Shown here: positions 1 to 22,600 of the stretch, piece after piece
How the letters are laid out: the number at the start of each line of letters is the position of its first letter
Numbering within the stretch: the first letter of the stretch is position 1
Source of the DNA: Blattamonas nauphoetae
Lineage: Eukaryota
Assembly: GCA_033064195.1 (NCBI GenBank)
Contig: JARBJD010000447.1
Span: 1 to 49,087 of the forward strand
Length of the DNA stretch: 49,087 nt
Reading direction: 5' to 3'
Translations under genes and position numbers: made by a program
The notes under the pieces: generated by a model
Told to the model about the DNA's origin: nothing
Databases searched by the model: none
The model's input: only the letters and a program-made list of their open reading frames with translations

Positions 1-1057
1 TGCAGGAATAACTCGTGCCAGTCGAGGATAATCCAGCAGATACTGGGAAAGAGTAATAGACAATGTGATTTCAATTCAATTCAATCCAGAAGTAGCATCC
101 TGAAGTAATGGGACCAGATGAAGCGAAGAACATCTTTCAGGATTCGACGAATTACCAACAGAAGGACATCAGAGAATGAAGAAGAAAGGATTTCCAGGAG
201 CAGGTGTATCCACAGTTTCTAGAATTCATCACAAATCAAGAAATTTGCAAACATTCCTTGATGAGACATAGTACTGCATGGCATCAGAGATTAGTACTCT
301 GACACGCCACGAAATATGCAACCAAGAACAGATGAAGATATCAGTCAATACCAATCTTCAGATATGCCAGCTTACTCTCAATATGTTCAGTAACAAGAAG
401 AAATGTCTGATTAAAACATTAATATATATTTTTATTTTTATGAAAGTGATGCAACCAATTCTCAGTTGTCAATTTACGAAACACAAGTTCTTCTTCAGTC
501 CCAACATCAATCACCAACAATGTCATCATCGACAATAAAGGTTCGAATTCTGAGATCTAAGCTCGAAGATCGTAATGAACAAAGCGCTAATGTCAGACTC
601 GATAATGTTCAGGTGTTTATGATCCACCACTAGAGACATATCCATCAGCCCCCATTCAAAGTCGTTCTATTCCACTTCGAGAATATATTTCAAATATTTC
701 GGCATTCAAAGATCAGTTATTACTCGTCTACAAGAATGCATTCGCTTGTGAAAAGAAACTATTGAATAATCTCATTGAACCATCAGAAACTGATCACGAA
801 CCAAAGTGATTTATGTGCACTGATTGCTACACTCACTGGGATTAATGATGTGGTGATCGAACTGGATATCTGACAAGTGCCTATGTCTGAATAAACTCCC
901 AGTGTTTAGAACCATTTTCAAGATCCTTGTTGGTGGAAAGACATGAGTATTGCCTTCAATGAAGCATGTAACACCATTCCTCAATTATGGCATTTCTCTG
1001 ACGAAAGCAATTCCTCGCTAAAATTATAAATGGTGTATTTTTTCTTTTTTTCTATAA

Positions 1058-1367
1058 ATGGCACCAAGGAAGTTTCAACAAACTCAAAAATATCGGCAAA
1101 CAATTCTTTCAATTCATCAAACCTCTAGCTCCAACATTCCTTCAAGTTGGTGGTGGATTGCTCTCACAAACGAACAGTAAATTTGGACAAACAGCAGGTG
1201 GAATACTCAATGGATTAGGAGGAATGATGGACGTTTATCAACAAAATAAGGCGATCAATCGAGCACAGAAACCGCAGATGATTGATTATGAACCACCTCG
1301 AAATGGGAGATACTCCAATGATGATATGCCACTCTCGTCAAATTCCAAAATTCAATTCAAAGGATAA
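1058..1367 (+). CDS. Small protein with N-terminal amphipathic helix (one frameshift shortly after the start); possible membrane-lytic/core virion protein
   Basis: ATG at 1058 follows TTTTTTTCTATAA. After a frame change it reads FNKLKNIGKQFFQFIKPLAPTFLQVGGGLL, continuous with ORF 1158..1367. The N-terminus resembles the next gene (MAP...KLxxxGKxxxxxxxP). Confidence 0.5.
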
Positions 1368-1404
1368 ACATTCACTCGTATTCGAATATTTTATTTTTAT
1401 TAAA

Positions 1405-1713
1405 ATGGCACCAGGTTGGTTATCAAAATTAGCAGCAGTTGGCAAAAATATACTCAGAGTTGGAGCTCCATTTCTGAATCTCATCCCCTTTGTTGGACCA
1501 CTGATTTCGAAGGTAGCGCAGACAGGAATTGAAATGATACCAGATGTGAAATCGGATCAGCAAATCCATGCAGAGAAGATGGCACAATACGAGCAAGCGA
1601 TCAATGAAGGAAACACTGCAGTAGCGAACAAGCTCAGAGGAGAAATACTGAGACTGGAAGAGAAGCTGAAGCCGAAGGTTAAGGTGAAGAAACCAAAAAG
1701 AAAAAGTAACTAG
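1405..1713 (+). CDS. 102-aa protein with amphipathic N-terminal helix and basic C-terminal tail; possible membrane-lytic/core virion protein
   Basis: ATG at 1405 in TTTTATTTTTATTAAAATG context. Reads MAPGWLSKLAAVGKNILRVGAPFLNLIPFVGPLISKVAQ and ends KLKPKVKVKKPKRKSN. Lies immediately upstream of the capsid-like gene. Confidence 0.6.
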   Translation: MAPGWLSKLAAVGKNILRVGAPFLNLIPFVGPLISKVAQTGIEMIPDVKSDQQIHAEKMAQYEQAINEGNTAVANKLRGEILRLEEKLKPKVKVKKPKRKSN

Positions 1714-1749
1714 AGTTAAAGCATAAATGTAATTTTTATTTTTGTTAAA

Positions 1750-3612
1750 ATGAACTCGCATATAACATCTGACAAACAAAGAACTGGAGCATCATCCTTG
1801 ACTGGAAATACCACTGGAAGGATAGAATACACGAGAGATGACATGGGTCAAATTCAACAACAACTCAGGTCCGAACATTTCATTAATTACCTAATGAATG
1901 ATGGGGCACACAGTACTTCGATTCAAGAATTGAAACCATCAGAGAATGCACGCTTCTACACGGGACAAGAGATAATCATTCCACTGACTGGTAATCAGGA
2001 CATTTGTCAAATTGATGATTCATTCATAACGTTCACCATGACTGCGACTCTGAAAGTTAATAATTGGCAAACAACTGCTGGAAAAATTGGTTCGTACATG
2101 AATGAGAGAATCTTCATCTTCGTTGGACTCAAGCATTCAGCATCAATCTTTCGTGACCTTACTGTTCTTCACAACAATCAGAGAATCATCTGCACAACAA
2201 ACAATGATGTCTCAATGGAATCACACATCTACAATATGATAAAACCGAAGAGTCAATTGGAGAATCGAAAACATTGTCACACACCTTGGAAAAACGCATG
2301 GGAGCATGATGAATCTGTAGCTGGTGTCTATATTCCACTTTCTGATTTTACAACAACATCTGGAACAGGGGTGTTTCAAGACACAATTGATGTGCCAATT
2401 CGCGTGTCAATCAATCTTGAAGATCTTCTCATTTTCTCTGGAATGACTGACTATCCAAAATATCTCTTTGGTGATTTGAAATTGAGTGTGCACATGAATG
2501 AGGATGCGTTTGTTTGTTGTTCTGTGAATCCTGAACTTACTTTGAAAGATACACTATCATCACTCGTAACTGGAACAGCAGCAGCACCAACGATTAAAGC
2601 AGCAATTCTCAATTGTATTCAACATCGTCCCTATTTCTTGAATAACCTTGTCACCTCATGCACAAAGAATTTCGTTCAAATTGGCCAATCATTTCTTCAA
2701 CCAACCGTTACTAAAGACATTGTTTGTTCAACAGCCAATGCCGTGACAACAGAACCAGAATTCGTCGATCAGTACATCTCATTAAACGTCACAAACTATC
2801 GGATTGATGATGTGTATTGCATGAGTGCTGGATACAAAATGAAAGATGGTGCGATAAAGAATCTGAAGCAGATGTACACAAATCGTCCTGGAACAATTCC
2901 GGCAGAAAAGATCTTATTCTATCCATTTCAGAAGACACCAACGGCAACAGGAATTGATTGTACTCAGCAAATGGTAGTGGTGAATGCCAAGGATATCATG
3001 CTTCTCTTCCGTCACTACGACAATGAAGTCACTTGCTTCCACAATCCAATGCAGAAGAACATCCAAGTGACTTTACAAAACAGGTATTATCCAGAACAAC
3101 CAACGACAACTATTGGAGCTCGCTTCTATCAGTTCGCATTATCGACTCTCAATCTCGATTCGTACCTAGCTGTTCCTGATGATTTGGAGCGATCACTGAC
3201 GGATTCTCTCGTTGAAGAGAAACTCACTGGTGACGGAACATATCCCAATGAAACAATGACAAGAGTTCGTCCAGTTCATGACAATACTGACTTCCTTCTG
3301 TGCTTTCCTACTCAAAGAAGTGGATGTCCAACGAACTGCAATGATTCCATCAGTTCAAAAGGAAACACTGCGGTCACTTTGAGATCGCATCCAATCTATC
3401 AGGGTAATCTTGACACATACTATAATGTTTACAACCCAAGTCAAAGTGGAGGTGATATGACAACATTTACTCATCCTCCAGCACCGATTCTAGCAACCAC
3501 TGCAACAACGTGGTGGGTCTTGCGATACAGCAATGGAGAACCAAAAGTTGAGTACTATCCTAATCACACATTGAAAGCATTACATAAAGATTTAGGAATT
3601 ATTCCAAATTGA
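1750..3612 (+). CDS. Putative double-jelly-roll major capsid protein of a Polinton-like virus
   Basis: Intact 620-aa ORF with beta-strand-like patterning (IIIPLT..DDSFITFTMTATLKV, FIFVGLK, YPKYLFGDLKLSV, C-terminal PPAPILA..WWVLRY). Size and gene context fit a major capsid protein; the fold is inferred. Confidence 0.65.
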   Translation: MNSHITSDKQRTGASSLTGNTTGRIEYTRDDMGQIQQQLRSEHFINYLMNDGAHSTSIQELKPSENARFYTGQEIIIPLTGNQDICQIDDSFITFTMTATLKVNNWQTTAGKIGSYMNERIFIFVGLKHSASIFRDLTVLHNNQRIICTTNNDVSMESHIYNMIKPKSQLENRKHCHTPWKNAWEHDESVAGVYIPLSDFTTTSGTGVFQDTIDVPIRVSINLEDLLIFSGMTDYPKYLFGDLKLSVHMNEDAFVCCSVNPELTLKDTLSSLVTGTAAAPTIKAAILNCIQHRPYFLNNLVTSCTKNFVQIGQSFLQPTVTKDIVCSTANAVTTEPEFVDQYISLNVTNYRIDDVYCMSAGYKMKDGAIKNLKQMYTNRPGTIPAEKILFYPFQKTPTATGIDCTQQMVVVNAKDIMLLFRHYDNEVTCFHNPMQKNIQVTLQNRYYPEQPTTTIGARFYQFALSTLNLDSYLAVPDDLERSLTDSLVEEKLTGDGTYPNETMTRVRPVHDNTDFLLCFPTQRSGCPTNCNDSISSKGNTAVTLRSHPIYQGNLDTYYNVYNPSQSGGDMTTFTHPPAPILATTATTWWVLRYSNGEPKVEYYPNHTLKALHKDLGIIPN

Positions 3613-3659
3613 AAACATTAAAAGAAAATAATGATATTGTATTTTTTATTTTTCTATAA

Positions 3660-5353
3660 ATGAGAAGTTTCAGATCTAATCAATCAAAACCAACATCGAC
3701 ATTAATTGAGCAAATTGAAGTGCAATCATATCTTCCAAAACAGTGGGATTCAGAACCTCATGTATATTCAATTCAGGAAGTGCATCCAACAAATCCTCCC
3801 ATGCCATGCAGAATTGGAGACGAGATTGAAGTTCCATTGTGCTATGACGGACATGATGTTACTGAGTTTGCGAAGAGTCATTTGCGTATCGATCTAACGA
3901 TTACTGTTCCATATACATATCCATCAGATGCGGATGCTTCAGAGTCAGCTGGATTGTACGGAATGTTCTACGGTTACAAATCATCATCAGATGCCATTCG
4001 AGACATGAGACTGGTTGACAGTAAAGGAAACATTATTGACAATACACTCCAGAATAATCATGTTCACGAATCATTTCTGTATCACACTTTCAAGTCGTAT
4101 GAAGAAAAAAACAACATGAAGCATTGTTACAGTCTGTGGGAAAATGTTCAGAGAATGGATCCAAGTGTGTGTGGATTCTACTATGTTCCAACACTCACTG
4201 GGATGAAAAAAACATTCACTGCAACGATTCCACTGGTAATTCCGTTTGTGAATCTCCTTCCACTGAGTACCTTTGATCAGTATCCAAATTCGATTTTTGG
4301 TAATTTACGTTTGATGATTTCACTTGACAACTGATTCACTTGTGTATTGTCCCATTCGAACTTCAACTGTTGTAAGAAAACACTTGAGATGATGAAAGAT
4401 CGATATCCAGATAAAGACGAGCCTCGTCTCGCACCAGAAGGGCAAATGAGTCTCATGTTCGATGGAGAATACTCTAATTTGACACAGGAATTTACACAAA
4501 TTGGTAATCCAATACTTCAATTCGATGACAATATAATGCCTTCTGTGAATTCATTTTACATTTCATATATCAAAACCAAATCCTTCACAGCCACTGTTCT
4601 TTCATCTTCGATAGATACAGTGTCTTCGATTTGTTACGGATATCAAATCACTGATGCAACGAAGCAGTCACTCTTCAACACATATTCAAAGACTCTGTAT
4701 GTCCTGAAAGCTGAAAGAATTGACACACAATCGTTCCAATCACAAGCAACAGCAATGGGAGTGAGATCAAACATCAGTATCAAGCTCAACAATCTCATGA
4801 ATCTTATGTGCTTATTCCTGAAAGACCAAATGAATGTACAGTCTTCAGAAATCCTCATTATGTTGGCTTATTCGAAATGCTTGGATCCAACTTTCCCAAT
4901 TTCCCGATGTCAACACTCTCGCCAGAGTTCTATCAAATGATGATGGTGAATGGTGATTTTATCGGTTGTTCCGCGACGGAAGAGTTTGAGAATTCAATCT
5001 GTATGTCACGCAATTCTACCTGTTTTGGAAAGGAGTTCAAGAGAACCAGAGCAGTTACGGATGCTACTTCATTCACATTCATGGTTCCAACAGATCGAAG
5101 TGAAATCGCTGGTGGAGAAGAAGGTATTTCAACAGCAGAATCAGTGAATATCGTCTACAGAGGATCACCAATCAATCAGGGAGAACTCGATCCATATTTC
5201 ACCTCAACTCCAGAAGGTCCTCCTCCTCCAATTCTAGCACTACATCAAGCAACATACTGGTTATTCTGGATTGAAAATGGACAACCACGAGTGCGATATG
5301 TCATTGATCGTCGACTCCAAGAAGCGTATGAAGAAGTGAAGAGAGGTTATTGA
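3660..5353 (+). pseudogene. Second capsid-like paralog, broken by frameshifts near 4326, 4375 and 4808
   Basis: ORFs 3660..4334, 4347..4940 and 4808..5353 align colinearly with 1750..3612. Examples: ESFLYHTFK..NMKHCYSLWEN vs ESHIYNMIK..NRKHCHTPWKN; YPNSIFGNLRL vs YPKYLFGDLKL; PPPPILALHQATYWLFWIENGQPRVRY vs PPAPILATTATTWWVLRYSNGEPKVEY. Confidence 0.75.
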
Positions 5354-5393
5354 ACAGAACAAATATGATATTTTATTTTTGTAGAAAACAGAA

Positions 5394-5804
5394 ATGGTGA
5401 AGCGCTATTTCTCAATTCAGAATTCTCACACTGCTCAATTGCCTCCTGATTTTACCAATTCCAGAAACCAAAAATATGTTCACTTTCTCGACTGCAAACT
5501 TATTCATGTGAAGGAAGAAATTAATGGTAACTCAACTGTCATCTCAAAAGACATTCCTCAGCACATTACAATCCATGGTGATTGGATCCAGACTGATGCA
5601 TTCAATGACTCATTTGTTGCTTTCTGTAACGAACAGATTGCGAAGCGAAAGAAGTGGGAATTAAGCACTCGACAATCAATTGTGAAGATCTGGTTCAAAG
5701 ACAGTTCTGGTGAATCAATTGAGATGGAAACAACGGAGACAATCAATGGAAAAATAACCAAAGAGTATTATGAATTTCTGGTTGATCTCATGTTGGAGTA
5801 TTAA
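5394..5804 (+). CDS. Small beta-rich protein, candidate single-jelly-roll minor capsid (penton) protein
   Basis: 136 aa with alternating hydrophobic strands and C-terminal YEFLVDLMLEY. Last gene of the capsid cluster, with a T-rich upstream motif. Confidence 0.45.
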   Translation: MVKRYFSIQNSHTAQLPPDFTNSRNQKYVHFLDCKLIHVKEEINGNSTVISKDIPQHITIHGDWIQTDAFNDSFVAFCNEQIAKRKKWELSTRQSIVKIWFKDSSGESIEMETTETINGKITKEYYEFLVDLMLEY

Positions 5805-5816
5805 TGCTTCGCATTT

Positions 5817-6686
5817 CTATGATGACGGAGTCATGGTATTTGTCAGGGAATTATATTTTTGTGAAAGTTCATTGATGAGTGTCTGTTGTTGTCCGACAAT
5901 GCTGCTCAGTTCCTGAATGGCTTTCACACAAAAGCACGAGAGTTCTGCGTAGTCAACTTGAAGACAATCTGGATTGGAATCATTCACGACTTCAGGAAAG
6001 ATTTCTTGGATCTGTTGTGCAATCACACCAATGTGTTTCTTCTCACTTTCCTTCTTCAAGCATTCACATTTCTCTTTGCAGTTCTTCAAGTGTTCTTCAT
6101 TGGTTTCATTCTCGATTTGTCTTGTAACTTTGTTGATCTTCGAGTCGAATGTGTTGAATTGATATTGCACAATTTCAACTTTATTCAGTTGTTCAAGAAC
6201 ATCAGGATATGGTTCAATATTTCTTTTCACTCTTCTGTCTGACAGCTGAGAAAAACTTCCTGTTGTAGATATTGGAAACACTCCTGAACCAGTGTCCTCA
6301 TCGTAGTAATAGAGTGCTGGTTTGTCACAGGGAGACCACATAATAATGCCATCACCATTGAACTGAATTCCAGAAGTTTCTGCAAGTGATTGTGATATAG
6401 AAACGCCAGAAGAAAATGTTGATGCCGGATATGTTCCAGGATACTTCGGAAGTGATCCTTCTGAGATATTCCACTTCGCTCCATTCACATTGATCAATCC
6501 TCCAATTGTTGGTGTCGTGATCGATCCATTTGTGCTCACCACTTTCTGAATTGAAGATATCGCATTCTTGTGTGCTTCTGTTGTCTTCTGTAGTGAGTCA
6601 ATCACTGCTGTATTCTCGTTGGTTGTTGAGAGATTATGATCAATCATTTTCTCAATCATTTGTGAATTGTATTTTTGTCGATTCAT
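5817..6686 (-). CDS. Fibre-like protein with N-terminal coiled coil and C-terminal Peptidase_S74 intramolecular chaperone
   Basis: Contains SDRRVKRNI cleavage motif, HIGVIAQQIQEIFPEVV and VDYAELSCFCVKAIQEL followed by a coiled coil. Likely start is MNRQKY (ATG at 6686); the ORF is open from 6788. Confidence 0.85.
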   Translation of the reverse strand: MNRQKYNSQMIEKMIDHNLSTTNENTAVIDSLQKTTEAHKNAISSIQKVVSTNGSITTPTIGGLINVNGAKWNISEGSLPKYPGTYPASTFSSGVSISQSLAETSGIQFNGDGIIMWSPCDKPALYYYDEDTGSGVFPISTTGSFSQLSDRRVKRNIEPYPDVLEQLNKVEIVQYQFNTFDSKINKVTRQIENETNEEHLKNCKEKCECLKKESEKKHIGVIAQQIQEIFPEVVNDSNPDCLQVDYAELSCFCVKAIQELSSIVGQQQTLINELSQKYNSLTNTMTPSS

Positions 6687-8256
6687 TTTTGGTTGTTGAC
6701 TTTTTATGGGAGTAAAAATTCTCCACTGAACAAACCATATCAACTTTTTTTCGTCATTGATTTGACTTTCCTCTATTTCAATCATCACTTCACATCAAGA
6801 AATTTGCCTCATTATGCACAATTCTGACATTTCGTTTGCGTAAATGAAGAATGGGTGGAAGATCTACAACAATGGGAAGAACAACGCCAACTCTCGATTC
6901 TGATGTTTGCCACCATTTCTGTTCCTGATATTGTTTTCACAGCTCATTCGAAAACTCTCCTTCGTGCTCGGAATCAATCCTCAACCATACTTAAGCGTTA
7001 AGCCAAGTACAGCTCTTCAGATGCTGTGCGAGCTGTTGGGATGCGGAGGTCCAAGGCGTACTCTGCCGCAACTGTGTAAGTACATTCGGTATCTTCTCTG
7101 CCGAGTGTTTTTCGCACTTCAAAATGTTATTCGACATTCGCTCTATCGAATCCAGTCTCGAACTCTTCTACAAATACGTATCCTCATCGACAAAGGGTTG
7201 GATGAATGTAATTTCGATGGACAACGCGACCTTGTATCTCTATTGGTGGTGGGAGTCAATTTCACAATGACGACGAAGGAACACTATCAAGAATTTCTAA
7301 GCATGGAGGAAACTAATGATGTTGATCAAATCCGCGTTGAAACCTCAAAATCTGCGCACGACACAATCGAAGCACTGATTGTGTCACTAAACACCGTTCC
7401 GACCGAAAGCAATTCGCCGTCGTTCATCCCTTTGGACGATAGCTTAAATCAGAGCGATGCGCGGGATGGTTAGTTTGTTCACTTTTGTTCAAAGATTTCC
7501 AATCATTCGATTTTTTGTTTCTCTAAATTTGATGAAAAGCCGCCTTCTTTCCAGAGACACCAGGTGAAATGAAGAGTAGAAGAAAAGTTAGTTTTGAAAT
7601 CTTTTCACGATAATTATCAATAACAGTATTCAATCAAAAACAGTGAAACGTTATCACCTCTCTATCAAAAGATCAATGTGTAAATTTCGTAGAACCAGAA
7701 CACTACAAAAGTAGTCAATCAAAACGGTAAAGAAAAGAGAACACATTCACTTGGAGAGTCTAGAAGCCTATGTGATATGAATTTTAATCCGAGAAAAATG
7801 ATACAAACCAAAAAGTCGCGTGAACGTGAAAGCTGAGTTCAATGTGATGGATGTCTAGGAAACTCATGAAAAATTCATACTTTCTGAAACCGATGTGTTA
7901 CACAAGATATTGAATTTGCCTGAAAGAAAAGAAAGTACATAGCGAGAAAAGTGATGCGTGGTACATACGTTTTTAACTTTTTGTATAAGATGATCTGATG
8001 AAAATCAAAGAGAATACCGAAGGAAAATGACATACATATTTCCGATTCAATTTTAGCGGGCCAGTTAGCTACCTAAGTATTTGTGGACACATCGATCTTT
8101 AGCCTCAATGGTTTGATCCTCTCATCTCATTCCTGACGACTCTTTACTGTTTCGTTTAGGTGTGTTTCACTTTCTACTTTCACATTTGTTCTCTTTTCTT
8201 TTTTGACATCTCATTCTTGTTCTCGATCCTTCACTTTTTTCTGTCTCTCTCGTTCA

Positions 8257-9533
8257 GGTACATCACATTGTTTTATGAACGGTGGTTTCATTCCCGACTT
8301 GTTTTGAACAGGTTTGCTCCATTTTTGAATTCATTCTTTCCTAAAACTTACTTATGTACCAACGCCGATCAAACCGAAAGTGGACCTGAAGATCAGGTAC
8401 ACAGATGCGTTTTATCGCTTAAAAGTATGTCTCTCGTGATTTACCAAACAGGTATTCTCTTCTTTTTTATTCATCTTTTCATAAAACATCTTCATGTACT
8501 CGATCTGCGTGATCATCAAACTCAGGTACACTATTGCGTCTTATGACCAGAAAGTGCTGTTCACTGAATATTTGAAACAGGTTTGCTCTCTTTTTTGTAT
8601 TATCTCTTTATAAGACACAATGACGTACCAGAATTTTCACTTCACTTTTGACATTCTCTTTTCTGGTACAACACTTCACTTTATCCTCTCATTTTCACTT
8701 CATTGTCAATTTTTTCTCATTGTCTCTCACTTTTTTACAAAATTAAAATTTAAAATGACGTGAACAAAATTTTGATCCTCATCTTTGCTCAAAAAACTTC
8801 GTGATTCATCGATAAAATTGTATGCGTTGGTACACCACTTTGTTTTACTTTCATTCAACTTTCATTTCACCTTTTACACTTCACTACTCTTCGATTTGTG
8901 CTCTTCATTTTTTCTAAAACACAACGGTGTACCAACAAAACGCGATCTGAAGTGATCATCCAGATCAGGTACACCACTTCACCTTATCGTTTCATTTCAC
9001 AACTATTTGATTTCAATTCTCTTTTTTGATCAAAACAAGGTAGAACACAGAACTAAAAATGTTTGATCGTCAAGATAAAAATGAACTGTGAGATCTGGTA
9101 CATGAATGTGTTTTATCACTTCAAACCTTGTTTCACTTCACAATTTTGATCTCTTTATTGACATTTTTGCTCTAATCTTTCATAAAACAAAGTGGTGTAC
9201 CAACGAGACTCAATCTGAAATGATCGGTGAGATCTGGTACATGAATGTGTTTTATCGTTTAGTTCTCACTTGAATCATTGTTTTTTACTCTTGTTTTCTG
9301 AAATTTTGATGAACGCGTTCATAAGGTGAAGTGGTGTACCAACGAAGTGAGAAAAACAATGACTGGAGAGATCTGGTACGTCACTTCACCTTATCGTTGC
9401 TAACATTGTTTCACTTCACAATTTTACTCTAATTAGAAACATTTTGGTCAAACTCGTTCATAAAGTGAAGTGGTGTACCAACAAAACACAAAGAATCAAG
9501 ATCGCTCCGATCTGGTACATGATTTTGTTTTAT
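8257..9533. repeat. Array of about 10 degenerate ~139-bp units built from inverted bipartite GGTAC-N11-TTAT motifs
   Basis: Forward GGTAC starts at 8257, 8396, 8525, 8665, 8829, 8968, 9097, 9236, 9375 and 9514. Reverse copies ((A/C)TAA-N11-GTAC(C/T)) start at 8341, 8481, 8610, 8914, 9182, 9321 and 9460. Confidence 0.9.
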
Positions 9534-10694
9534 CGTCTCATTCTCACTTCATTTACATTTTAGTACTCTAGTTTTGTGAAATTTAGATGAAGATGTTCAT
9601 CAAACTCAATACTTTCCCACCATTTTCACTATTTCCATTTCACCATTCACTATCATACTTGCCCACTTCATTTTAGCTTCATTCACCTTCATTTGGTCTA
9701 ATTAAGAGAAAAAGTCGACGAAAAATGAAGTATTGTGATGTGCTCGTGAAGTGTGAATGACTGAAAAATGGGTTGTAAAATGAGGGGAATGAAGAGGAGA
9801 GTTGAATACCTGAAATGTGAAACGTGGAAAGTGAAATGAGAGATGAAAGGTGTTGAAGTCGTTTAAGCTTAGACAAACGGTATGATGGAAAAACACATAA
9901 AACCAACATTATGAAAAAACTAGTCGTTAAAAGTGTCGCGAAAATTCAGTACTCCCTCCTCGAAAGGTGAGAAAGAAGATGTGATGTGAGAAAATCGGGG
10001 CAAAAATCGATATGAGTGAAAAGTTGGTGAAAATGTGGTGCAAAAAAGGTGCGTTCAAAAAAAGAGGACTATGAAGGTGAGGTGATCGGGAACCTAGGAA
10101 AAGCGTCGGAAGGACGCGAATGCGAAGAAAACGAAAAATCTAACGCAAAAAACGAAAACTGACCAAAAAAGTGGTGAAAGATGAGGTGCAAAAGTGAACG
10201 TTCGAAGAGCCGCCAAAAGGCGACTCCGAGCGAAATGAAGTGTAAAAACGCAAATAGGAGGCAAAAGTGATCCTAAAAAGTGAAGTGCTGAAAGCGCATA
10301 CATTTTTTTTAAAATTCGGAGAAACTCGAAAAATGGAATATGGGTTGATCTAGAAAAATCCCGATCCGGCCTTGATCTAACCAAAAATTCCAAAAGTGTT
10401 TTTTATCGCGAATTTCACCTTCTGAAATCGATTTTGTAATTTTAGAAGGTGTTTGAGGTGTGTTTGAGCCATTTAGCAGCAGTTTTAAGCAAGTTCTGAA
10501 AATCGACTTTTTGGTAACTTTTTCGACCACTGTTCGGTACGTAGCTCCGCGAATTCTCAACCGATCTTCATCAGGATTGTTTTGATCGACGACTCACATC
10601 GTCTCCGACATTTTAGAATTTTTTTCGATTTTTTTCGAAGTGGTTCTCAAGTTGGATTCACTTTGTTGTGGTCAAAAATAGATTTTCAGTGTTT

Positions 10695-11288
10695 TCATGA
10701 CCTCTCGTGGTACTTTCTCAAGTGAGGACGGTCTCCAAAATACAACCAATTGTCTAGTCGAACGTAATACTCATTCTTTGTTCGTAAATCGCGATATTTG
10801 AATGGCTCAAGTACCTTTGTGTATGTTCCAATGAGTTCGCAATTCTCTTTTTTCAATACATTTTCAACAAATGATTGAGTGTAATGTTTTCGTTGACAAT
10901 TATGAGCTCGATATCCTTTCATCCATTTCGAGGGAATCACTTTCCATTCGATTCCTTCGTACCGGTATGTGACAAGTGAATCAGCATACTTGTATTCAGA
11001 AATGAGTTCACAATTTTCATTTTTCAATGATTCGAGAAACTTTTCTTTCGTGCAACAATTAGATGCTGAAAGATATCTCTGGCGATTCAGATGTGGTCTG
11101 TATCCTTTGACGAAATTATTGACATACGCTCGATAAATGTCATCTGGTTTATCTTCGTGCACGTATTCGAAAGTACTCGCCGTGAGATATGTTGTTCCTT
11201 GTCGATTGAGAGTTGGTGGTGATTTCAGAATCAATTTTTCTTTCTCCAAAATTTCCAGTAGTTGAGTTGGTGTCAAGACAGAGCTCAT
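10695..11288 (-). CDS. Viral-type repeat protein (CapR-homology/DUF723-like repeats), possibly DNA-binding
   Basis: Internal repeats FLESLKNENCELISEY..WMKGYRAH, FVENVLKKENCELIGTY..WLYFGDRPH and LLEILEKEKLIL..FVKGYRPH. The start MSSVLTP sits in T-rich...TAAAATG context on the minus strand. Confidence 0.55.
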   Translation of the reverse strand: MSSVLTPTQLLEILEKEKLILKSPPTLNRQGTTYLTASTFEYVHEDKPDDIYRAYVNNFVKGYRPHLNRQRYLSASNCCTKEKFLESLKNENCELISEYKYADSLVTYRYEGIEWKVIPSKWMKGYRAHNCQRKHYTQSFVENVLKKENCELIGTYTKVLEPFKYRDLRTKNEYYVRLDNWLYFGDRPHLRKYHERS

Positions 11289-13320
11289 TTTATCCAAATT
11301 AAAAAATTGAATAAAAAAAGAAATCGACTTTGTTTTCTGAAAGCACTCAAAATTTGCTTCAAAAAAGACGCTTCAAAAGAGGTCCAAATATTTGACATAT
11401 TTTTGGAATTTAGGTCAAATATTGACATCGTCAAAATGCATAAAAGACTTTTAGTTCAAGATTCAAAAGTGGGTCAATCGGAATTGAGATTTGACTTCTA
11501 TTTATCGATCGAGACCAACGTGGTTCTTAATTCTTCTCTATAACTACTATATTTACTTCATTATTGCTTGATATTACAACAATTCATGGATATTATACTC
11601 AATATTTCTTCATCTCTTCTTTCAATGCCATTATCGTGATTCATCTCATTTTTCAATGAATTGTTCACATTTTCCACAAAATTTTCTTGTTGGTGAGTAT
11701 AGAGGAAGTAATCGGAAAACATTTCATGACTATTGTACAAATTCTGGGCCTAGCCGAATAAAACCGGTTATTTATATTTTAGCTGGTTTTGTGGAGGGTC
11801 TACAGGGTATCTCATAAGTCTTGGATCTCGCGATTTGTGAGAGACCAACAAAGCTTCATGATTCATGGCGTTCGTTTTGTGTATCCTCTCTTCTTTTGTC
11901 ACCTTTCTGCAGATGAAAGGAACTGTGAGATGTCATTCATCCCTCTGTCCAACTCATGGCAAGGATCGTCAACAATCATTTATGATGTTGTGTCGTCCAG
12001 AATTGAAGTGAATAATTGTCAGAGGTCTGCTTCTTTCTCGCCAAAAGTGCTTTGTTCCATCCATTCTCAGAAACGTTGCACCTCGTCATCATCAACCAAA
12101 ATCAACGCACCTCTTTTCGAATCAGAACAGGTTCATCGATGACCAAATCGCTTTTTCCTCGCTTCGTTCTCCGAGAACTTTCACCCTCTCTGGTTTTGGG
12201 AAGTATAGAAGACTCAGAGTTGTCGAGTTTGATCACTTGATTCACAATCACCATTTTTTCAGCATCAGGACAATCATAATTCCTGGGATCCATTCAACCT
12301 GACGAAAATGTCTCACAAAGTCGGAAGCATTGTCTGGAATCATCAGGAAGTACTCTGAAGGATCTCTCACGAAATGACCAAACTTGACGTTCTGTCTCGC
12401 TGATGAATCGAGTTGATGAACTCCTCTCTCGTTGGATCAATTCAGTTTGCCTCTATCACTTGAATTTTGATTCATTTGTTTGTGATTTCTGCTCCAGACT
12501 TCAAGAACGAACCAATCTCCTCCAATGGGATCACTTCTTTCAAAATTAGGCATTGGTTGGGATATAATCCATCATAACGAAGTCATTCACAAAACACCAA
12601 GAAAAACTCAACCATTATCTTTGATGACACTGATTGTGCTGTCTGCGGCGTCTCTATTTTTCAACCACCTCCAAAACTGTCAGTTCTGGGAGTTTGTCCT
12701 TTTCATCCTCAATTTCCGGTTGTTGGAACCATTTTTCTCAACATTTCCATCTTGTGAATCCACATCCTTCCAAACCATCGAGATAACAATCCAACCATTT
12801 CGATCATTGTGAATCCTCTCATAGTCTTCCAAACAACCAAATTGCCGATTCTCGTCGGTACGTTGCTCATCTCTGAATGAAAAATCCGTTGTAGGACTAA
12901 GTCACGTATACTCTTCTGAATGGTTGTTGTGGACCGTGTCGCTTTTTTGTTCAACGTTGTTCTCACTTCTCTCTGCACCATTCCTCTTTACTTTGATTTT
13001 CACTATGAGAATCTGTCCAAGGATTGTGTGAATGAATGGATAATTCCTGAAACACATGATTGACAGAGATCTCGATGATTTCCAAGACTTATGGGATACC
13101 CTGTATAATTCTCAGAGGCGAGACTTGTTTCTTATCTTATGATTCCGAGGTCCATGTAATCTTTTCTGATGGTTGAATCGGACTGAGGAACTCACATTCA
13201 AAGAGATTGCGGTGATACTGGAAAAGACACCACTCACAGTCCGGCAAAGAAAGGGCCTTAGCTCCATCTGATCCTCTCTCACCTCTCGAATCAAGTCTCG
13301 AAGTATTTCCGGTCCGAGTC

Positions 13321-16300
13321 ATGATCCCTCTCTCGCTCGTTTTCTGCCTTTGTCAATCCATGTTCGCCGTCACATCCAGAACAACCTCTCCAACAAATCT
13401 TCAATCACTTCTGGGCACCATATCGAACACTACCTATCAAAAATCCAATGAAATTCAACTTGCCTCGATTCTAGAAGGAACATACATTGGAAATAACATT
13501 GAAATTAGGAGTATTTGTCTTGAATTATCGGGAGAAAGATCGAACAAAAGAAACTCGTCAGGAACTCACATTGTCCCGCAATCTCGGTCAGACAGCAACA
13601 GAAATGACGAAAAGCTCACCGTTCCCATTGGTGGGAATTGCATATTCTCATTGAGCAACTCAACATTATCTTTGGAATCACTCCACTTTTCCCTCGTCGC
13701 CAATTCTGACGAAGCAAGAAAGCATAAGCATATATTACGGACTTCAAGACTGGCTGTTGTTTCAGGCAGCATGCTGACAATGTCAGAAAGTGCAGTTGAC
13801 GTCTCGTCGTGGACAAGTGCAATTCTGATTTCTCCATCGAAATACGAGGAATCAACGAGTTCGTCGTCAGTTGTGGTGAACCAATGCTCGATCTCGAGTG
13901 ACAGTGACAAGTTGCGTGGTTTTGTGGAAACTTCAGCATTTCCAAATTGTGGAGGATGGTGTTCAGTCTCGATTATCGACTGTTCGTTCAACTCACAGGG
14001 AATTCTCGGAACAGACGGGATTGGCCTTTCACTGACACAAACACCTCGAAAAAGTGCGGAAGAGGTTGGAATGATCTCATCATCGCTGATTGGATGCTCG
14101 TTTGTGAACATGAGTTCAATTGGCTCTTCCCGCCAGCTCCAGCTGTCACATTTGTCCCAAAAGATGTTGGGATGTGTTGTGTCGCTGACAAGTTCGCATT
14201 TGTCAGGTTCGACGATTCGGGATGTGAACAATGGAGGGTCAGTTCTATGCTCGAATTCCTCCTTCTCCTCCCTCCTCTCCTCCCCCAACGCCAACCCATC
14301 ACCGTCCATCGTCCATCCTGATGACAATCCTCGTCAATTTTCTCCCTCCGACACGTTTATCATCGACAACACTTTTTCGTCGTCCACCATCGCGTCATTC
14401 TCGCACTGCCACTTCAAAAGCAACGGCACCCCAACTCCCACTCGCCCGCTCTTCTTCAAAGAATACCCGGGCACCATCGTCCTCCTCTCCTGCTCGTTCA
14501 CCAACACGGCCTGCAGCGATTACTATGCCGGCGCTGTGTACATCCTGTTCAACGTGGCACCCGTCAACAACCTCGTCGGAGTCACGTCGTGCAACTTCAC
14601 AGGCTGTGCAGCTGCATCACAAGCTGGAGGGATGTATTTGATTACAGGCACAGCCATCGTCACTGTCAGCGAATGCCGCTGCGTGGGATGTTCGCTCACT
14701 GATGAGAGGCAGACGGAATGTGGAGGGATGTTCATCCAGCTCCCCAAAACACCCGGATCGACCATCTCCGACTTGTATTTCGAAGACTGCACAAGCACAG
14801 AGGCTGCGGGAGGGCTGCATGTGGGGAATGTCCGAAGCACCCATCTCGTCACCTCACTCTCGTTCAAAGAATGCTCAGCGACCGCAGAAGACAACCCCGC
14901 CCGCGGTGGAGGGCTGTACCTCGTGTGTTCAGGATCAGAGACAGCTCATGTGTCTCTTTCTCACCTCCACTTCGAAGATTGCTCGGCTGTCGAACAAGGA
15001 GCCGGGTTGTTGATCGTTTCGTATTACCATTCTCTTTCTCTCGTCGACTGCGACTTCATCCGCTGCAAGATGACCCCCTCTGAGTTCTTCGGTGGACAGG
15101 GCGGTGGGATGGAAGTCTCATGTCTCCCGTCACATCTCGCAGTGACAGCGTGCCAGTTCATCGAGTGTTCAGCAAATTCGCGTGGTGGAGCGATTTATGG
15201 GGCGTCGAGTGGGTTTGAGATGACCGACTGTGTTGTCAAGAACTGCTCGTCGGGGTCGAACGGAGCAATTTACCTCACTCCACTTGACACCTCACTCATC
15301 ACTCTTTCGAATGTTCTCTTTGTCGGGAACACGGTGGACGACAATCCTTCATATTATGAAGGTGCCATCATCACGAAAGGCCCAATTCAGTTTGCAGACC
15401 TTCTGGTTGACGGGTGGTGGAGCAACGCCACAAACGATGTGTCAGTCAGCGGCTGTTGGACGACATCACCAAACAGTTTGGGAATGTTTGATTCCGAAAG
15501 GAATGCCACCACAGGCGTCCTCTACATCGCCCGAGTGGATCACCCTGCCTTCCTCAATGTCGGACCGTTCCTGACACAGAAAGTGGAAACGTCGCTTGAT
15601 GTGGATGAATGGAGGATCGATCTGATTGTGAGGGGGAAGATTCCTCTGAAATCACAGATTTATGAAGTGACGGTGAAAGCAGAGGGAGATCCTGAACTGT
15701 CAGGGCGACTGCAAATCGTTGATGGTGTTGGCTCACTTGTGCCATCGTTCAATATGAATATGAAATTCTCAACGACATACACGATCACTTCGATTGTGGG
15801 TGTCGTCCCATCGTCGTCTTCATCGACGATGATAAACGACATCTCTCTTTCTGCCGAAGCGTGGGCCTTCAACCTCGCTGCGACTCCCTCCCTCCTCGCC
15901 TTCACCACTCCCGTTCAGCCACCCACCCTTCTCGCATCGTCTGCCAACTTGACAGATGCAAGCCAACCCTTCGCTTTTCTCATCCTTGTGTTCGATCGAG
16001 AAGTGAGTGGGTCGTACGAGATTGTTGTGGAGGAGCGAGGGAAGAACGAGAGGATCACTGTGACGATGAACGGATCGTCGTTCGAAGGAGAGAGCAAGAC
16101 GATGCGCGTCGTGGGTGACGATCGAGTCCTAACACACGACACGACATACACAATCAAGTCGCTCTCTCCAACAGTCGGAAGTGAGACAGCGACGACTGTG
16201 TGGATGAACAAGACAGTCACATTTCACATCCCTCAATCTTCGTACTCGGCTGGCAATAAAGCCCTGTCGCCCAAAACGAAGGCGCTGCTGAGCTGGCTGA

Positions 16301-17295
16301 TTCCTGTGGTCGTGTCAGTTTGTGTGGCTCTTTTGGTTGCGATTGTTGTGATCGTGTTGCTCCGTCGACGACATCAGAAGTCGCAAGTTCCTGCGAAAGA
16401 GATGGAAGAGCCAGACCAAGTGCAAGTTGAAGACAAGATGGACATCGTCGAAAGTGGGTGCACGAATCAACTCGTACACTCCGACGGGATGAGTCACTCT
16501 GCATTCGGGTCGTCCAGCAATTACCTGCCGACAGTGGGCCACTTGCAAGATGGACTGAAATCTGAGACAGTAGCGGAGTGGGCAGAGGTGATGACGTGCG
16601 GCGGAGCGTTTGAAATCTCGGCAGCTCCAATCACGAACACGCTGTATTCGGTGTTGCACAAGGAACGGAGGGAGATTGAGAAGCGAGGAATTGGAATTCA
16701 GATTGTGAATGGATTGAAGCAGGTTGTGGCAACTCGAGGACGGAGTGATGTACTGACTCATCTTTCGTCTCACTGGATTCTGATTGACACAGCAGGGAAT
16801 GTTCAACTGAAGCTTCAAATGAACGCGTCAGAAGCAGAACAGGAAACAGCTCGAGCTCAAAGACAAGACCCTGCCGTTGCTGGAGAGGAGAAAGTACCAA
16901 ACCAAAATGGACTCCCCAGACTGATCAGAAACGAAGTGAAGGACAAGTCGGGAATGGAGGGTCTGCGATGGTGTCCCCCTGAAGTATCGACACTGAAGGG
17001 CGGGCAGGTGGATGGGCACAAAGCGTCAGTTTTTAGTCTTGGCCTGATCTTGTGGGAAATAGAGACTGGACAAGTGCCGTATGGAGAGCTGGATGCAGTG
17101 AATGCTCAGCGACAATCGGGAACAGGAATTGGACCGAAAGTGGACGCTCTGAAGAACGAACAGTTTGTGTCACTGATCCGTCGCTGTGTGTCGGTTGACC
17201 CGAACGAACGACCAACGCTGACAGAAATCGGAGAGTTCCTCTCGTCTCATCCAGATGACACAGTTGGTGAGTCTCGAAACGAGATGAAGGAATAA
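13321..17295 (+). CDS. Single-pass receptor-like protein: signal peptide, beta-helix (pectin-lyase-like) ectodomain, transmembrane segment, degenerate TKL-like pseudokinase C-lobe
   Basis: Hydrophobic N-terminus; repeated FxxC..GG(A/G)(I/L)Y motifs; transmembrane WLIPVVVSVCVALLVAIVVIVLL followed by RRR; kinase C-lobe motifs LRWCPPE, ASVFSLGLILWEIETGQVPY and DPNERPT. No recognisable HRD, DFG or VAIK. Confidence 0.8.
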   Translation: MIPLSLVFCLCQSMFAVTSRTTSPTNLQSLLGTISNTTYQKSNEIQLASILEGTYIGNNIEIRSICLELSGERSNKRNSSGTHIVPQSRSDSNRNDEKLTVPIGGNCIFSLSNSTLSLESLHFSLVANSDEARKHKHILRTSRLAVVSGSMLTMSESAVDVSSWTSAILISPSKYEESTSSSSVVVNQCSISSDSDKLRGFVETSAFPNCGGWCSVSIIDCSFNSQGILGTDGIGLSLTQTPRKSAEEVGMISSSLIGCSFVNMSSIGSSRQLQLSHLSQKMLGCVVSLTSSHLSGSTIRDVNNGGSVLCSNSSFSSLLSSPNANPSPSIVHPDDNPRQFSPSDTFIIDNTFSSSTIASFSHCHFKSNGTPTPTRPLFFKEYPGTIVLLSCSFTNTACSDYYAGAVYILFNVAPVNNLVGVTSCNFTGCAAASQAGGMYLITGTAIVTVSECRCVGCSLTDERQTECGGMFIQLPKTPGSTISDLYFEDCTSTEAAGGLHVGNVRSTHLVTSLSFKECSATAEDNPARGGGLYLVCSGSETAHVSLSHLHFEDCSAVEQGAGLLIVSYYHSLSLVDCDFIRCKMTPSEFFGGQGGGMEVSCLPSHLAVTACQFIECSANSRGGAIYGASSGFEMTDCVVKNCSSGSNGAIYLTPLDTSLITLSNVLFVGNTVDDNPSYYEGAIITKGPIQFADLLVDGWWSNATNDVSVSGCWTTSPNSLGMFDSERNATTGVLYIARVDHPAFLNVGPFLTQKVETSLDVDEWRIDLIVRGKIPLKSQIYEVTVKAEGDPELSGRLQIVDGVGSLVPSFNMNMKFSTTYTITSIVGVVPSSSSSTMINDISLSAEAWAFNLAATPSLLAFTTPVQPPTLLASSANLTDASQPFAFLILVFDREVSGSYEIVVEERGKNERITVTMNGSSFEGESKTMRVVGDDRVLTHDTTYTIKSLSPTVGSETATTVWMNKTVTFHIPQSSYSAGNKALSPKTKALLSWLIPVVVSVCVALLVAIVVIVLLRRRHQKSQVPAKEMEEPDQVQVEDKMDIVESGCTNQLVHSDGMSHSAFGSSSNYLPTVGHLQDGLKSETVAEWAEVMTCGGAFEISAAPITNTLYSVLHKERREIEKRGIGIQIVNGLKQVVATRGRSDVLTHLSSHWILIDTAGNVQLKLQMNASEAEQETARAQRQDPAVAGEEKVPNQNGLPRLIRNEVKDKSGMEGLRWCPPEVSTLKGGQVDGHKASVFSLGLILWEIETGQVPYGELDAVNAQRQSGTGIGPKVDALKNEQFVSLIRRCVSVDPNERPTLTEIGEFLSSHPDDTVGESRNEMKE

Positions 17296-19322: not shown

Positions 19323-19643
19323 CCTCTGGAAGTTCCGGTGGGAATGTCTGACTGCTTCATCGATGAAAGTACATCGTCGGTGGTTGTCCGTCAGACGTGC
19401 GAGTTTGGACGACAAGAGTGATGAAGATGAGAAAGAAATCAAGACATGTTCCGAATCTTTAGATTCTCAGAATGGGCGATGACGTACTTGTGGTTCGATC
19501 GTCAAGAGAAACACAATTCAAGACTGATTCCGTTCGATGATATCACCGTTCAACGAAGGGGATCCTCAAAGAAAGGGCCTACAATCATTCAGTTCACTTT
19601 TTCATTTCGAGAATCTAGTCTCGACGTATCACTAAAACCAATC

Positions 19644-22600
19644 ATGATCCCTCTCTCGATCCTTCTCTACTTCTTGCAACCAATATTAACTGTCACTTCC
19701 CAAACAACGAATCCATCAAATCTCACATCACTTTTGGACACCATACAAACCATCGCAGATCCTCAATCGAATGAAATTCAAGTTACCTCGATTCCCGTAG
19801 GAACGTACATTGGAAATAACATCGAAATTAGGAGCAGGTGTCTTGCATTGTCGGGTGAACAGTCATACCAAAGTGCATCTCCAGGAACACACATTGTCCC
19901 GCAATCTGGGTCAAACAGCAGGAGAAATGAAGAAAAGTTGTCCATGCACACTGGTGAGAATTGCATATTCTCATTGACGAACTCAACGATGTCGATGAAA
20001 TCACTCCACTTTTCGCTTGTCTCCAATTCTGAAGACAGAAGACAACAGAAATACAACGCACGCCCAAAAAAGCTGGCAATTGTTTCAAGCAGCATCCTGA
20101 CAATATCTGAAAGCTTAATTGAAGTCTCGTCGGGAACGAGTCCGATTCTGATTTCACCATCGACATTCGAGGAATCAGCATCACAATCGTCAGTTGTGAT
20201 GAAGCAATGCTCGATCTCGAGTGAAAGTGGCCAGTTGCATGGTTTTGTGGAAACACCAGTATTTCCAGATTTTGGAGCAACACGATCAATCTCGATTGTT
20301 GCATGCTCGTTCAACTCGCAGGAAGTTCTGGGAACAGACGGGATTGGCCTCTCTCTGACACAAACAGCTCGAAAAAGTGCAGAAGACGTGGGAATAATCT
20401 CGTCATCGCTGATTGGTTGCTCGTTTGTGAACATGAGTTCGATTGACTCTTCACGCCAGCCACAGCTGTCGCATATGTCCCAAAAGATGTTGGGATGTGT
20501 TGTGTCGCTGACAAGTTCGCATCTGTCAGGATCGACGATTCGAGATGTGAACAATGGAGGCTCCGTTTTATGCTCGAATTCCTCCTTCTCCTCCCTCCTC
20601 CCCTCCCCCAACACCGACCTGTCCATCACTTACCCCAATGGCACTTCCACTCATTTTGATGATGATGGCACCGACTATTACTTCGACAGCTGCAGCGGGG
20701 ATGAATACACATTCGCCTCCTTCTCGCACTGCCACTTCACTGGCACCCACTATGGATTCGGTGCTCGCCCTCTCACTTTCATGGAGTACCCAGGAACCGT
20801 CTCCATCCTCTCCTGCTCCTTCACCAGCATTCTTTTCGATCACTCCTTCGGCCAAGGAGCAGCTGTGTATGTCATCCTCAGTACACCGTTCAACCGCTTG
20901 CGGTTCACAGCAGTCTCGTCGAACTTCACGTCCTGCTCGGCAGGGGTTTCAGGTGGAGCGCTGGCCCTCCTCGTTTTGGACGACAATCTCGTCGATTCGT
21001 GCCTCTTCTAAGGCTGCTCAGCGGCTGAGTATTCCTGGTCTTACGGCGGGGCGCTCGGTGTTTCTGCGTACAACAACGGCGACTCCCTCAAACAGCTGAG
21101 ATTGGTTGGTTGGGTCATTGCCGACTGGTTCACGCTGGGAAGTGGAGGTGGCGTGGATCTCTCTGGGTGCATCGATCTTTCAGTTGTCGACACGTTATTT
21201 GAACACTGTGAGGTCACCAATGATCAGACAACCTCGCGTGGAGGAGGAATTAGCGTGAGACTGCTGAATGAGCTGACAGTGGCGAGATGTTCCTTCGTCG
21301 AATGCTCGTCCGGTGGCGGAGGAAGTGCAGTTCACTTCGTGCATAACAGCCGCATCAGCATCTCCGACTCTCTCGTTCAGAACTGCTCCTCAGGAGCGAC
21401 TGGTGCGATCTGCATCTGCAGCCCTGGCGATTATGCGCCTCTTTCGTTGTCCCGTGTGTACTTTGTCTTGACTCCTCTTCGTTACCCACCCTCCTGATTG
21501 ACGAATGTTTCACGCACATCATTCCTGACTCAAGTGGAATGATTATCAAAGGAGATGAACTTGAGTCAGATCTGTACGACTCTGTGCGATGTCAACATGC
21601 CGAGTTCAACAATATTGGTCCAGTGCTGACAGCGAAGCCAACAGGGAGAGTGAACAGGGAGACAGGAAAGATTGAGTTGGAGATGAAGGCGATAACACCT
21701 CCGACATCGCAGGAATTTGAAGTGACAATGAAAGAGGATGGGAATGAAACAGATACAGTCTTGAGAATGTTGTTCTCGGAAGGGACAGGGACTCTAATCT
21801 TTGAGTCAGAAGCCAGTCAGAAGTACAACACAGCTTACACCATCACAAAGATTGTGGGAGTTGTTCCTGACTCTTCTTCTTATCGGATGCCAAATGGCGT
21901 CACAGTGCCTGCCATAGCGTGGCCGTTCAACCTCGCCGTGAATTCTGATTTCCTCACATTCACCACACCAAAACAACCCTCCACTCTTCTCTCAGCCATT
22001 TCCAACATCATTTCAGACGACTCGAAGTGTGCACATGTGATCCTCATCTTTAACAAAGAAGTGTATGGATCGTTCGACGTTGTTGTGGAGGAAGATGGGA
22101 AGGACGTGATGTTGACAGTGCCGATCTTGACGGAAGCTCTGGCTGGGGAAAGTGGGAAGTTCGTCATTGTTGGAAGCGATCGTCTCCTCACACATGACAC
22201 GACATACACAATCAAATCGATTGAACCAACACCAGGAACAGACACCCTGTTTGTGTTCATGAATCGCTCGATCACATTCCACATCCCGAAATCGTTGTAC
22301 GTACCTCCGGAAGAGCCGGAACCTGAAGATCCGGAAGATCCGAAGAAAGCCATGTCACCCGAAACGAAGAAACTTCTGAGCTGGCTGATTCCTCTGGTTG
22401 CTTGTCTGCTGATTGCACTCCTCCTCGCCGTCGTTCTCATCGTTCTCCTCCGTCGACGACTGCAGAAGAAAGCTCAGTTTGAACAGAAAGAGATGGAAGC
22501 GCAGGAGACGTTGTAAGTTGAGAAAGTGGAGGAGTTTGGGATTGATTGTTCGAATGGAGTGATTCGGACAGATGACAATGATTGATCACCGTTGAATTTG

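Follow-up and report, generated by a model that had tools for sequence, protein, structure and literature searches.

A fragmentary, high-copy double jelly-roll capsid element near a chromosome end, probably of the Polinton or Polinton-like kind

The window analyzed here is the whole 49,087-bp stretch of contig JARBJD010000447.1. Its left end, at about 1-6695, is probably a truncated and partly decayed copy of a high-copy endogenous virus with a double jelly-roll (DJR) capsid, of the Polinton/Maverick or Polinton-like virus (PLV) kind, and the host of this element, judged from indirect signs, is probably a metamonad. An earlier note made from the sequence alone had proposed the virion-gene module of an integrated virus at this place. 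Since a protein of 620 amino acids (aa) models as a DJR major capsid protein (MCP) and a neighboring fiber protein with a Peptidase_S74 domain is real, such an integrated module is supported. Read from left to right, the block would consist of a decayed gene of a 206-aa family, two small genes that we call MAPG, two capsid genes in tandem (MCP1 and MCP2), a gene for a 136-aa protein, and the convergent fiber gene. The same note had drawn the element as one continuous unit from 1 to 11548, and this outline did not hold up against the sequencing depth described below.

MCP1 is encoded by an intact gene at 1750-3612 on the plus strand (620 aa), for which the note had suggested a double jelly roll. 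With a 53-sequence alignment as input, AlphaFold2 produced a model with a predicted local distance difference test score (pLDDT) of 87.4 and a predicted template modeling score of 0.88; the single sequence gave a useless model (pLDDT 32). In a Foldseek comparison with the PDB, the best matches of the model were the capsid proteins of Sputnik (4.9e-12), Singapore grouper iridovirus, PBCV-1, and mavirus, within a range of 4.9e-12 to 1e-8. In BFVD they were capsid proteins of virophages, ascovirus, pithovirus, and adintovirus, starting from 4.2e-15 for the Qinghai Lake virophage MCP, and the Foldseek probability for the DJR capsid matches was 1.00. VIA-align gave Z values of 16.9 for PBCV-1 (350 residues aligned, root-mean-square deviation 4.2), 15.9 for Singapore grouper iridovirus, 15.7 for Faustovirus, 15.4 for mavirus, 14.6 for African swine fever virus p72, 14.2 for both vaccinia D13 and Sputnik, and 13.5 for the adenovirus hexon. 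These alignments comprised 341-399 residues and spanned residues 36-610. DJR major capsid proteins of the kingdom Bamfordvirae are defined by a pair of eight-stranded jelly rolls that follow each other within a single chain, and by its match to solved members over most of its length MCP1 belongs with them, which establishes its fold.

An exhaustive HMMER search with MCP1 found 333 proteins at E<=1e-3, with 217 at <=1e-10 and 47 at <=1e-30 (best match 8.4e-65, 32% identity), and most of these relatives are 530-680 aa long. The ten clusters of relatives that were looked up hold unnamed metagenome proteins, one of them labeled 'hypothetical protein', and their longest contigs measure about 2.2-9.0 kb. 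A word-index protein search returned nothing for MCP1 or for its 53-sequence alignment, which reflects a limit of that search, because the exhaustive one gave 333 relatives. The capsid alignment had 0 hits in a sequence-profile search of the PDB, and GTDB scans for relatives yielded only a 1.66-kb contig (L018). One metagenome scan provided 17 related loci of 1.2-4.4 kb. In one of these (L007), TAA or TAG occupies 15 conserved Gln positions of the capsid gene, and from its sequence L007 reads as a relative in, or adapted to, a host in which TAA and TAG encode Gln. The nearest Atlas clusters, which are leads only, are mostly from Preaxostyla (87 members, score 0.98), Parabasalia (522 members), and Preplasmiviricota viruses (148 members). 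Because of these Preaxostyla and Parabasalia clusters, and because L007 uses the code reported for capsid genes of an oxymonad, a metamonad link appears plausible. Within L007, both the capsid gene (1914-3083) and a neighboring gene (624-1154) need TAA/TAG=Gln to stay open, and the neighbor contains a WDTYRAAHPL stretch of the sort seen in glycoside hydrolases.

Directly behind MCP1 lies a broken, full-length paralog, MCP2, at 3660-5353 on the plus strand, which in the standard code appears as three open reading frame (ORF) pieces (3660-4334, 4389-4940, and 4877-5353). A tblastn search with MCP1 matched the window at 3708-4817 (25% identity, 3e-20) and, in another frame, at 4742-5338 (25% identity, 6.5e-16). 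The capsid family profile matched the two frames with 5e-76 (positions 1-389) and 6.9e-40 (positions 360-555), and since it covers the whole stretch in this way, MCP2 is a complete second capsid gene, which bears out the suggestion of two capsid-like genes. Two lesions break it: an early stop codon (TGA, 4332-4334) and, near 4816, the loss of one base, which shifts the frame. Contigs of other copies carry an extra base at 4816, with 11,551 of 52,888 in summed depth in one sequencing run (X2, see below) and 20-33% across three runs (X2-X4), and the frameshift is thus confined to a subset of copies that includes the window copy. We constructed a FastTree phylogeny of 95 rows, containing the two window proteins and 93 of the 150 matches listed (480-700 aa; the other 57 were left out for their length). 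Both MCP1 and MCP2 fall in the same 36-row clade (support 99), the base of which is unresolved and the branches long, with the sisterhood of the two paralogs undecided. No second capsid gene was present in any of the 16 capsid-gene flanks of at least about 600 bp in the related loci, so tandem paralogs as in the window occur in 0 of 16. These tandem, anciently diverged capsid paralogs are the sole unusual feature of the element, and we did not find a description of such a pair in the literature, where a search aimed at it brought up only a 2016 network paper. A reading of TGA as a sense codon was rejected; TGA ends MCP1, MCP2, the 197-aa ORF discussed below, and a host ORF. Separately, some low-depth contigs join 1026 to 3636 and 3662 to 1067, connecting the region before the first small gene with the MCP2 promoter region; these may represent variant copies without MCP1, or mis-joins between similar promoter boxes.

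The fiber gene lies at 5817-6695 on the minus strand and is convergent to the capsid genes, as had been predicted; its ORF continues through flanking DNA to 6785 (322 aa). The 322-aa protein matches Peptidase_S74 (Pfam PF13884) near its C-terminus, at residues 182-267, with 54.0 bits against a gathering cut-off of 22 and an E-value of 2.1e-14, covering profile positions 1-57 of 58, which places it among S74 fibers. In PHROGs it matched 41 families, mostly tail-fiber and tail-spike proteins (best 1e-19). The S74 match opens at S182-D-R-R-V-K, and we take S182 of this S-D-x-R-x-K stretch to be the position of the self-cleaving serine of phage S74 proteins. The first 30 codons of the 322-aa ORF are flanking DNA. 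Other copies of the element diverge from the window past 6695, where their minus strand has an ATG three codons ahead of the position of Q31 in the window, and because they carry this different sequence with an ATG, the fiber gene in the window has lost its native start and promoter. Compared with phage tail-spike and fiber proteins of the endosialidase type, the window protein shares the C-terminal S74 domain (54 bits) that opens at S-D-x-R-x-K; it differs in being short (about 295 aa in its native form), in sitting in a eukaryotic element, and in having an N-terminal part with no detectable enzyme or receptor-binding domain.

The repeat status of the element was evident from contigs of four DNA runs (X1-X4), all of one sample from the organism's own sequencing, the summed depth of which we used as a sign of a large repeat family. 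Over 401-6800, this depth was 19,777-58,885 in X1, 42,348-126,508 in X2, 20,902-56,795 in X3, and 10,972-31,607 in X4; over 6801-8000, it was 167-338, 283-395, 125-177, and 111-151, respectively. The ratio between the two regions is in the order of 100 (about 100- to 300-fold), and because contig depth on 401-6800 is around 100-fold higher, the element is one copy of a large repeat family. Among 82,592 X1 contigs placed on the stretch, 25,043 were at least 99% alike, 29,052 were 95-99% alike, and 28,497 were 90-95% alike, and in view of the first of these classes the family looks recently active. At the right-hand edge, contigs from X2, X3, and X4 bridge 6666-7038 at unique depth with 0-1 mismatches, and loose ends occur at 6695. 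Since this bridging is at unique depth, the junction is real, and the right end of the window copy is a truncation at about 6695 and not an element terminus. On the left, repeated DNA continues at lower depth over 1-439 (2,697 over 1-400 in X2), with no ORF of at least 60 aa except one at 278-538, and the element probably runs off the window there or decays. What the window contains is therefore only part of an element, with a break at about 6695 on its right side and a left side that leaves the window or is decayed. No further copy of the element is present in the rest of the window.

The DNA to the right of this junction appears to be separate from the element. Unique-depth, host-like DNA occupies 6696-8000 and includes a 150-aa ORF on the plus strand (7021-7473) with a G+C content at third codon positions (GC3) of 0.47. 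Depth rises again only at 8001-11600, to 7,261-33,642 in X2, and falls to 1,944 over 11601-12000, so that the end of this second repeated region near 11.6 kb agrees with the right boundary of the originally proposed unit (11548). Within it, a dispersed repeat array at 8100-9600 (depth 7,000-20,000 in X2) consists of direct and inverted repeat families with a 139-bp spacing. The repeat-rich non-coding stretch that had been described at about 8.1-9.6 kb is thus present, and Tandem Repeats Finder reported nothing on it. A 197-aa ORF on the minus strand (10695-11288), also as described, lies in a repeated block at about 10400-11600 with a depth of up to 33,642 in X2. The note had called its product CapR-like; the protein had no match in Pfam, PHROGs, NCBIfam, the PDB, or the word-index search, so that the label has no support from any library, none of which contains a CapR model. 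The sequence that other copies carry past 6695 was not found elsewhere in the window, and for this reason the 8.0-11.6 kb block is not demonstrable as a displaced continuation of the element. As the element ends at about 6695, and the array and the 197-aa gene lie behind 1.3 kb of unique DNA, the proposed right arm is not contiguous with it, and the depth drop at about 6800 divides what had been taken for one unit. The accompanying statement that several genes are intact holds only in part: three of the seven recognizable genes are intact with their own start, and the fiber ORF is open but lacks its native one. Recent integration is doubtful for the window copy, which is broken in several places, although the family as a whole looks recently active.

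From these features, the parent would have been an integrating DJR-capsid virus that multiplied in the host genome, presumably by means of a replication and integration module of the Polinton type. Intact copies could assemble MCP trimers into an icosahedral capsid that probably contains a membrane and bears fibers at its vertices. The fiber would be a trimer, with the C-terminal S74 domain folding it and subsequently cutting itself off. The window copy would no longer be able to build a capsid.

The small neighboring genes are in part conserved around related capsid genes. The leftmost, at 440-1030 on the plus strand, begins with an ATG at 440 and is broken into short ORFs; it gave weak colinear matches in two frames to the profile of a 206-237-aa family (positions 84-114, then 115-141), whose members lie downstream of the capsid gene in L012, L013, L015, and L017. 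We tentatively regard it as a decayed member of this family, which is the weakest of our assignments. It is followed by the two MAPG genes, on the plus strand, in which the two amphipathic genes of the earlier note can be recognized as hydrophobic and basic, with only the second intact. Copy 1 (1058-1370) has an extra base at 1066 relative to other genomic copies, and its ORF ends after 40 aa; read through with an X, it yields a protein of about 103 aa that aligns with copy 2 and with proteins of L008 and L016. Copy 2 (1405-1713, 102 aa) forms the end of a 141-aa ORF at 1288-1713 and has a hydrophobic segment (highest 19-residue hydropathy 1.63) and a basic tail, with 18 Lys plus Arg versus 9 Asp plus Glu. 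Small proteins that start with MAPG or MGVG and have a hydrophobic Gly/Pro/Ala-rich core precede the capsid gene in L006, L008, and L016, and we infer that MAPG copy 2 is a virion membrane or core protein.

The small ORF predicted to follow the capsid genes is found at 5394-5804 on the plus strand and encodes the 136-aa protein. Five of the 17 related loci have a homolog next to the capsid gene (E 2e-25 to 1e-9): in L002, L010, and L011 it follows that gene in the same orientation, and in L012 and L013 it is encoded on the other strand. The protein had no match in Pfam, PHROGs, NCBIfam, or the PDB, with Atlas scores below 0.9 and PDB profile matches at chance level; it is a candidate vertex (penton) or minor capsid protein, for which the note expected a single jelly roll. 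Pfam was uninformative on the 16 flanking proteins of the related loci except for an HNH endonuclease and a protein kinase. The former (HNH_3, 4.6e-5) is encoded at 898-1482 on the minus strand of L006 and the latter (a full kinase domain, 4.8e-55) at 1637-2491 on the minus strand of L014, each beside a related capsid gene, and either could be a mobile or host neighbor.

Most of these genes are preceded by a T-rich promoter-like box. The motif TTTTATTTTT has 7 matches in the window versus 0.38 expected, a number reached in 0 of 100 shuffles. The element accounts for five of these matches, each of them on the plus strand and ending 0-13 nt before an ATG: those at 430-439 (abutting the ATG at 440), 1389-1398, 1734-1743, 3644-3653, and 5371-5380 precede the ATGs at 440, 1405, 1750, 3660, and 5394, respectively. 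The boxes were also recovered as repeat families D7, D8, and D12, and similar T-rich boxes occur ahead of genes in the related loci. They may well be the element's own late-type promoters.

Several results weigh against placing the element with Polintons or PLVs. The structural scores do not favor virophage or Polinton capsids over those of giant viruses, all of them lying within about 3 Z units, and with values this close the structure does not fix the lineage within DJR viruses. DUF4106, the Pfam model of the Trichomonas Maverick capsid, was not matched by MCP1 at E<=1 and by 0 of 53 family members at E<=0.01; this model was built from a narrow set, and a distant kinship with the MCP1 family is still possible. 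IMG/VR scans contained no relative of the capsid or the 136-aa protein, and with these scans empty we know of no complete viral genome with this capsid. None of the nine scanned ORFs of the span matched pPolB, an integrase, an ATPase, or a protease. In particular, there is no A32-type ATPase or Ulp1/adenain-type protease in 1-11548 or among 16 flanking ORFs of related loci, sequence that is short and truncated, and no rve integrase among the window ORFs, where the only transposase-like match is an unrelated DDE_1 fragment at 41307-41984. The related contigs, at 4.4 kb or less, are too short to show replication or integration genes, and the element runs off the left window edge. Terminal inverted repeats with a 5-6 bp target-site duplication, as in Polintons, are likewise absent from view, the left end lying outside the window and the right one being a truncation. 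Summed contig depth, moreover, is not a copy number, and the host lineage is drawn from indirect signs.

Some of these results would also suit a new lineage of small DJR-capsid viruses in anaerobic protists, outside the Polinton-like kind, with only the capsid fold in common and another replication and integration module. This possibility draws on a capsid family with no Pfam model, no DUF4106 match, and no relative in the IMG/VR scans, on conserved neighbors (the 136-aa, 206-aa, and MAPG proteins) that match no known family in Pfam, PHROGs, or NCBIfam, and on the statement in part of a 2026 preprint that Maverick-Polintons and PLVs of Metamonada are still ungrouped. We nevertheless consider it rather unlikely, because high-copy integration, an S74 fiber, and a block of small genes centered on the capsid have the look of published endogenous PLVs, as far as the accounts considered here describe them, and require no new class. 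If the window instead contained part of an integrated giant virus (Nucleocytoviricota, such as an egovirus-like one), this would explain why the top Z values were to chlorovirus, iridovirus, and faustovirus capsids, and relatives occur in gut and digester metagenomes, which are egovirus habitats. Multiple capsid paralogs are common in giant viruses, and ATG-proximal A/T-rich boxes resemble poxvirus late promoters. This origin is improbable all the same: no giant-virus core gene is present in the window, and a sharply bounded 6-kb block at about 100-fold depth is in keeping with a small element that proliferates. In addition, an egovirus preprint gives, in the part considered here, a mean MCP length of 806 aa, as opposed to 620 aa for MCP1 and 530-680 aa for its relatives, and genomes of 160-467 kb. 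We give least credit, and very little, to host-domesticated capsid-derived genes or an assembly or contamination artifact. Open frames are kept in MCP1, the 136-aa gene, and one MAPG gene, and the window, whose telomere repeats are noisy, probably comes from a long-read assembly; however, neighboring genes of the same block are broken, a depth of hundreds-fold is unlike a single domesticated locus, the junction at 6666-7038 is spanned by short contigs from four runs at unique depth, and a telomere closes the contig. A copy of an endogenous Polinton-type or Polinton-like virus thus remains the probable reading.

This reading is in line with published elements. In the portion of Bellas et al. 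(2023, PMC10120064) considered here, thousands of endogenous capsid genes are reported in protists, including a 'Metamonada group' that was seeded by the Trichomonas Maverick capsid (DUF4106) and comprises five parabasalids and Streblomastix strix. The elements of S. strix, an oxymonad, use TAA/TAG=Gln, and Table S1 of that paper gives 820 hits in S. strix and 6 in Monocercomonoides exilis. Endogenous DJR capsid genes in metamonads are therefore already known, and the window element is a further member. Like the 'Metamonada group' as described in that portion, it has a divergent DJR capsid recognizable only by structure and many copies in anaerobic protists, one relative of its family (L007) uses TAA/TAG=Gln as in S. 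strix, and the nearest Atlas clusters are from Preaxostyla and Parabasalia. It is set apart from the group, by this description and the Pfam model, by the lack of a DUF4106 match and by its tandem paralogs. A passage of PMC12220804 (2025) describes S74 fiber genes as ubiquitous among the PLVs of most groups of eukaryotes, with parabasalids, ochrophytes, and amoebozoans as exceptions, and the window element, having such a fiber, differs in this from parabasalid PLVs. With PLVs and virophages such as mavirus, Sputnik, and the Gezel-14T type, it shares the DJR fold, the S74 fiber, a compact virion block, and integration and expansion in a protist genome, whereas its capsid is only 6-10% identical to theirs and no penton, ATPase, protease, polymerase, or integrase was identified in the truncated window copy. 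A literature search on capsid elements of oxymonads or Monocercomonoides found nothing beyond a review.

The window closes with a TTAGGG array (46960-49087) and is therefore a chromosome end; about 40 kb separate the element from this telomere, and the subtelomeric position given in the note was correct. The array becomes increasingly degenerate towards its end, with TTAGGAG and TTAGAG variants that are either true variant repeats or long-read error. The distinct composition of the claimed unit was likewise confirmed, with a G+C content (GC) of 0.377 over 1-11548 versus 0.468 over 13321-46950 and a GC3 of 0.33-0.42 in element genes versus 0.40-0.55 in host-like ORFs; further low-GC patches occur elsewhere in the window. 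Among the nine ORFs of the span, Pfam gave a significant match in one, the 322-aa fiber protein; the remaining eight had no PHROGs match at E<=0.001. The window was also scanned for Rfam families and tRNAs, without a hit.

The remainder of the window holds several features of its own. A 25-nt inverted repeat (11801-11825 and 13081-13105, 96% complementary) flanks 1.3 kb with short ORFs only and may be a small transposon remnant. Large Cys- and Ser-rich transmembrane proteins are encoded by a paralogous gene pair at 13321-17295 and 19446-22516; the first protein (1324 aa) has a partial protein-kinase domain at its end (Pfam 7e-10), and the second gene is split into ORFs of 521 and 325 aa. A 548-aa ORF at 37306-38952 (GC 0.60, GC skew -0.6) consists in its second half of a long tandem array of PNHHSRPHL/PNRHSRPLL. 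The DDE_1 transposase domain fragment mentioned above (Pfam 6e-10) belongs to a 225-aa ORF in a low-GC patch and is unrelated to the capsid element.

Endogenous PLVs make up large parts of some protist genomes, and those of metamonads are the least understood. The present locus gives a well-modeled capsid for a family of at least 333 sequence clusters with no Pfam model or IMG/VR relative, together with a conserved set of neighbor genes and a candidate promoter box. The locus further shows that a family has recently expanded in the host genome, which is relevant to how genome size evolves and to the antiviral roles that such elements may have. Beyond this, it is conceivable, and we offer it tentatively, that the element represents a lineage of integrating viruses of anaerobic (Preaxostyla-type) protists with virions built from two anciently diverged DJR paralogs, with its own conserved small virion proteins and ATG-proximal late promoter, active enough to have reached about 100 or more copies in the host genome, and unrepresented in IMG/VR and Pfam. 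If this were true, a small element might have capsomers in which the two paralogs are mixed or assigned to particular positions, an arrangement known from giant viruses. The tandem capsid duplication itself could show how small DJR viruses gain specialized capsomers.

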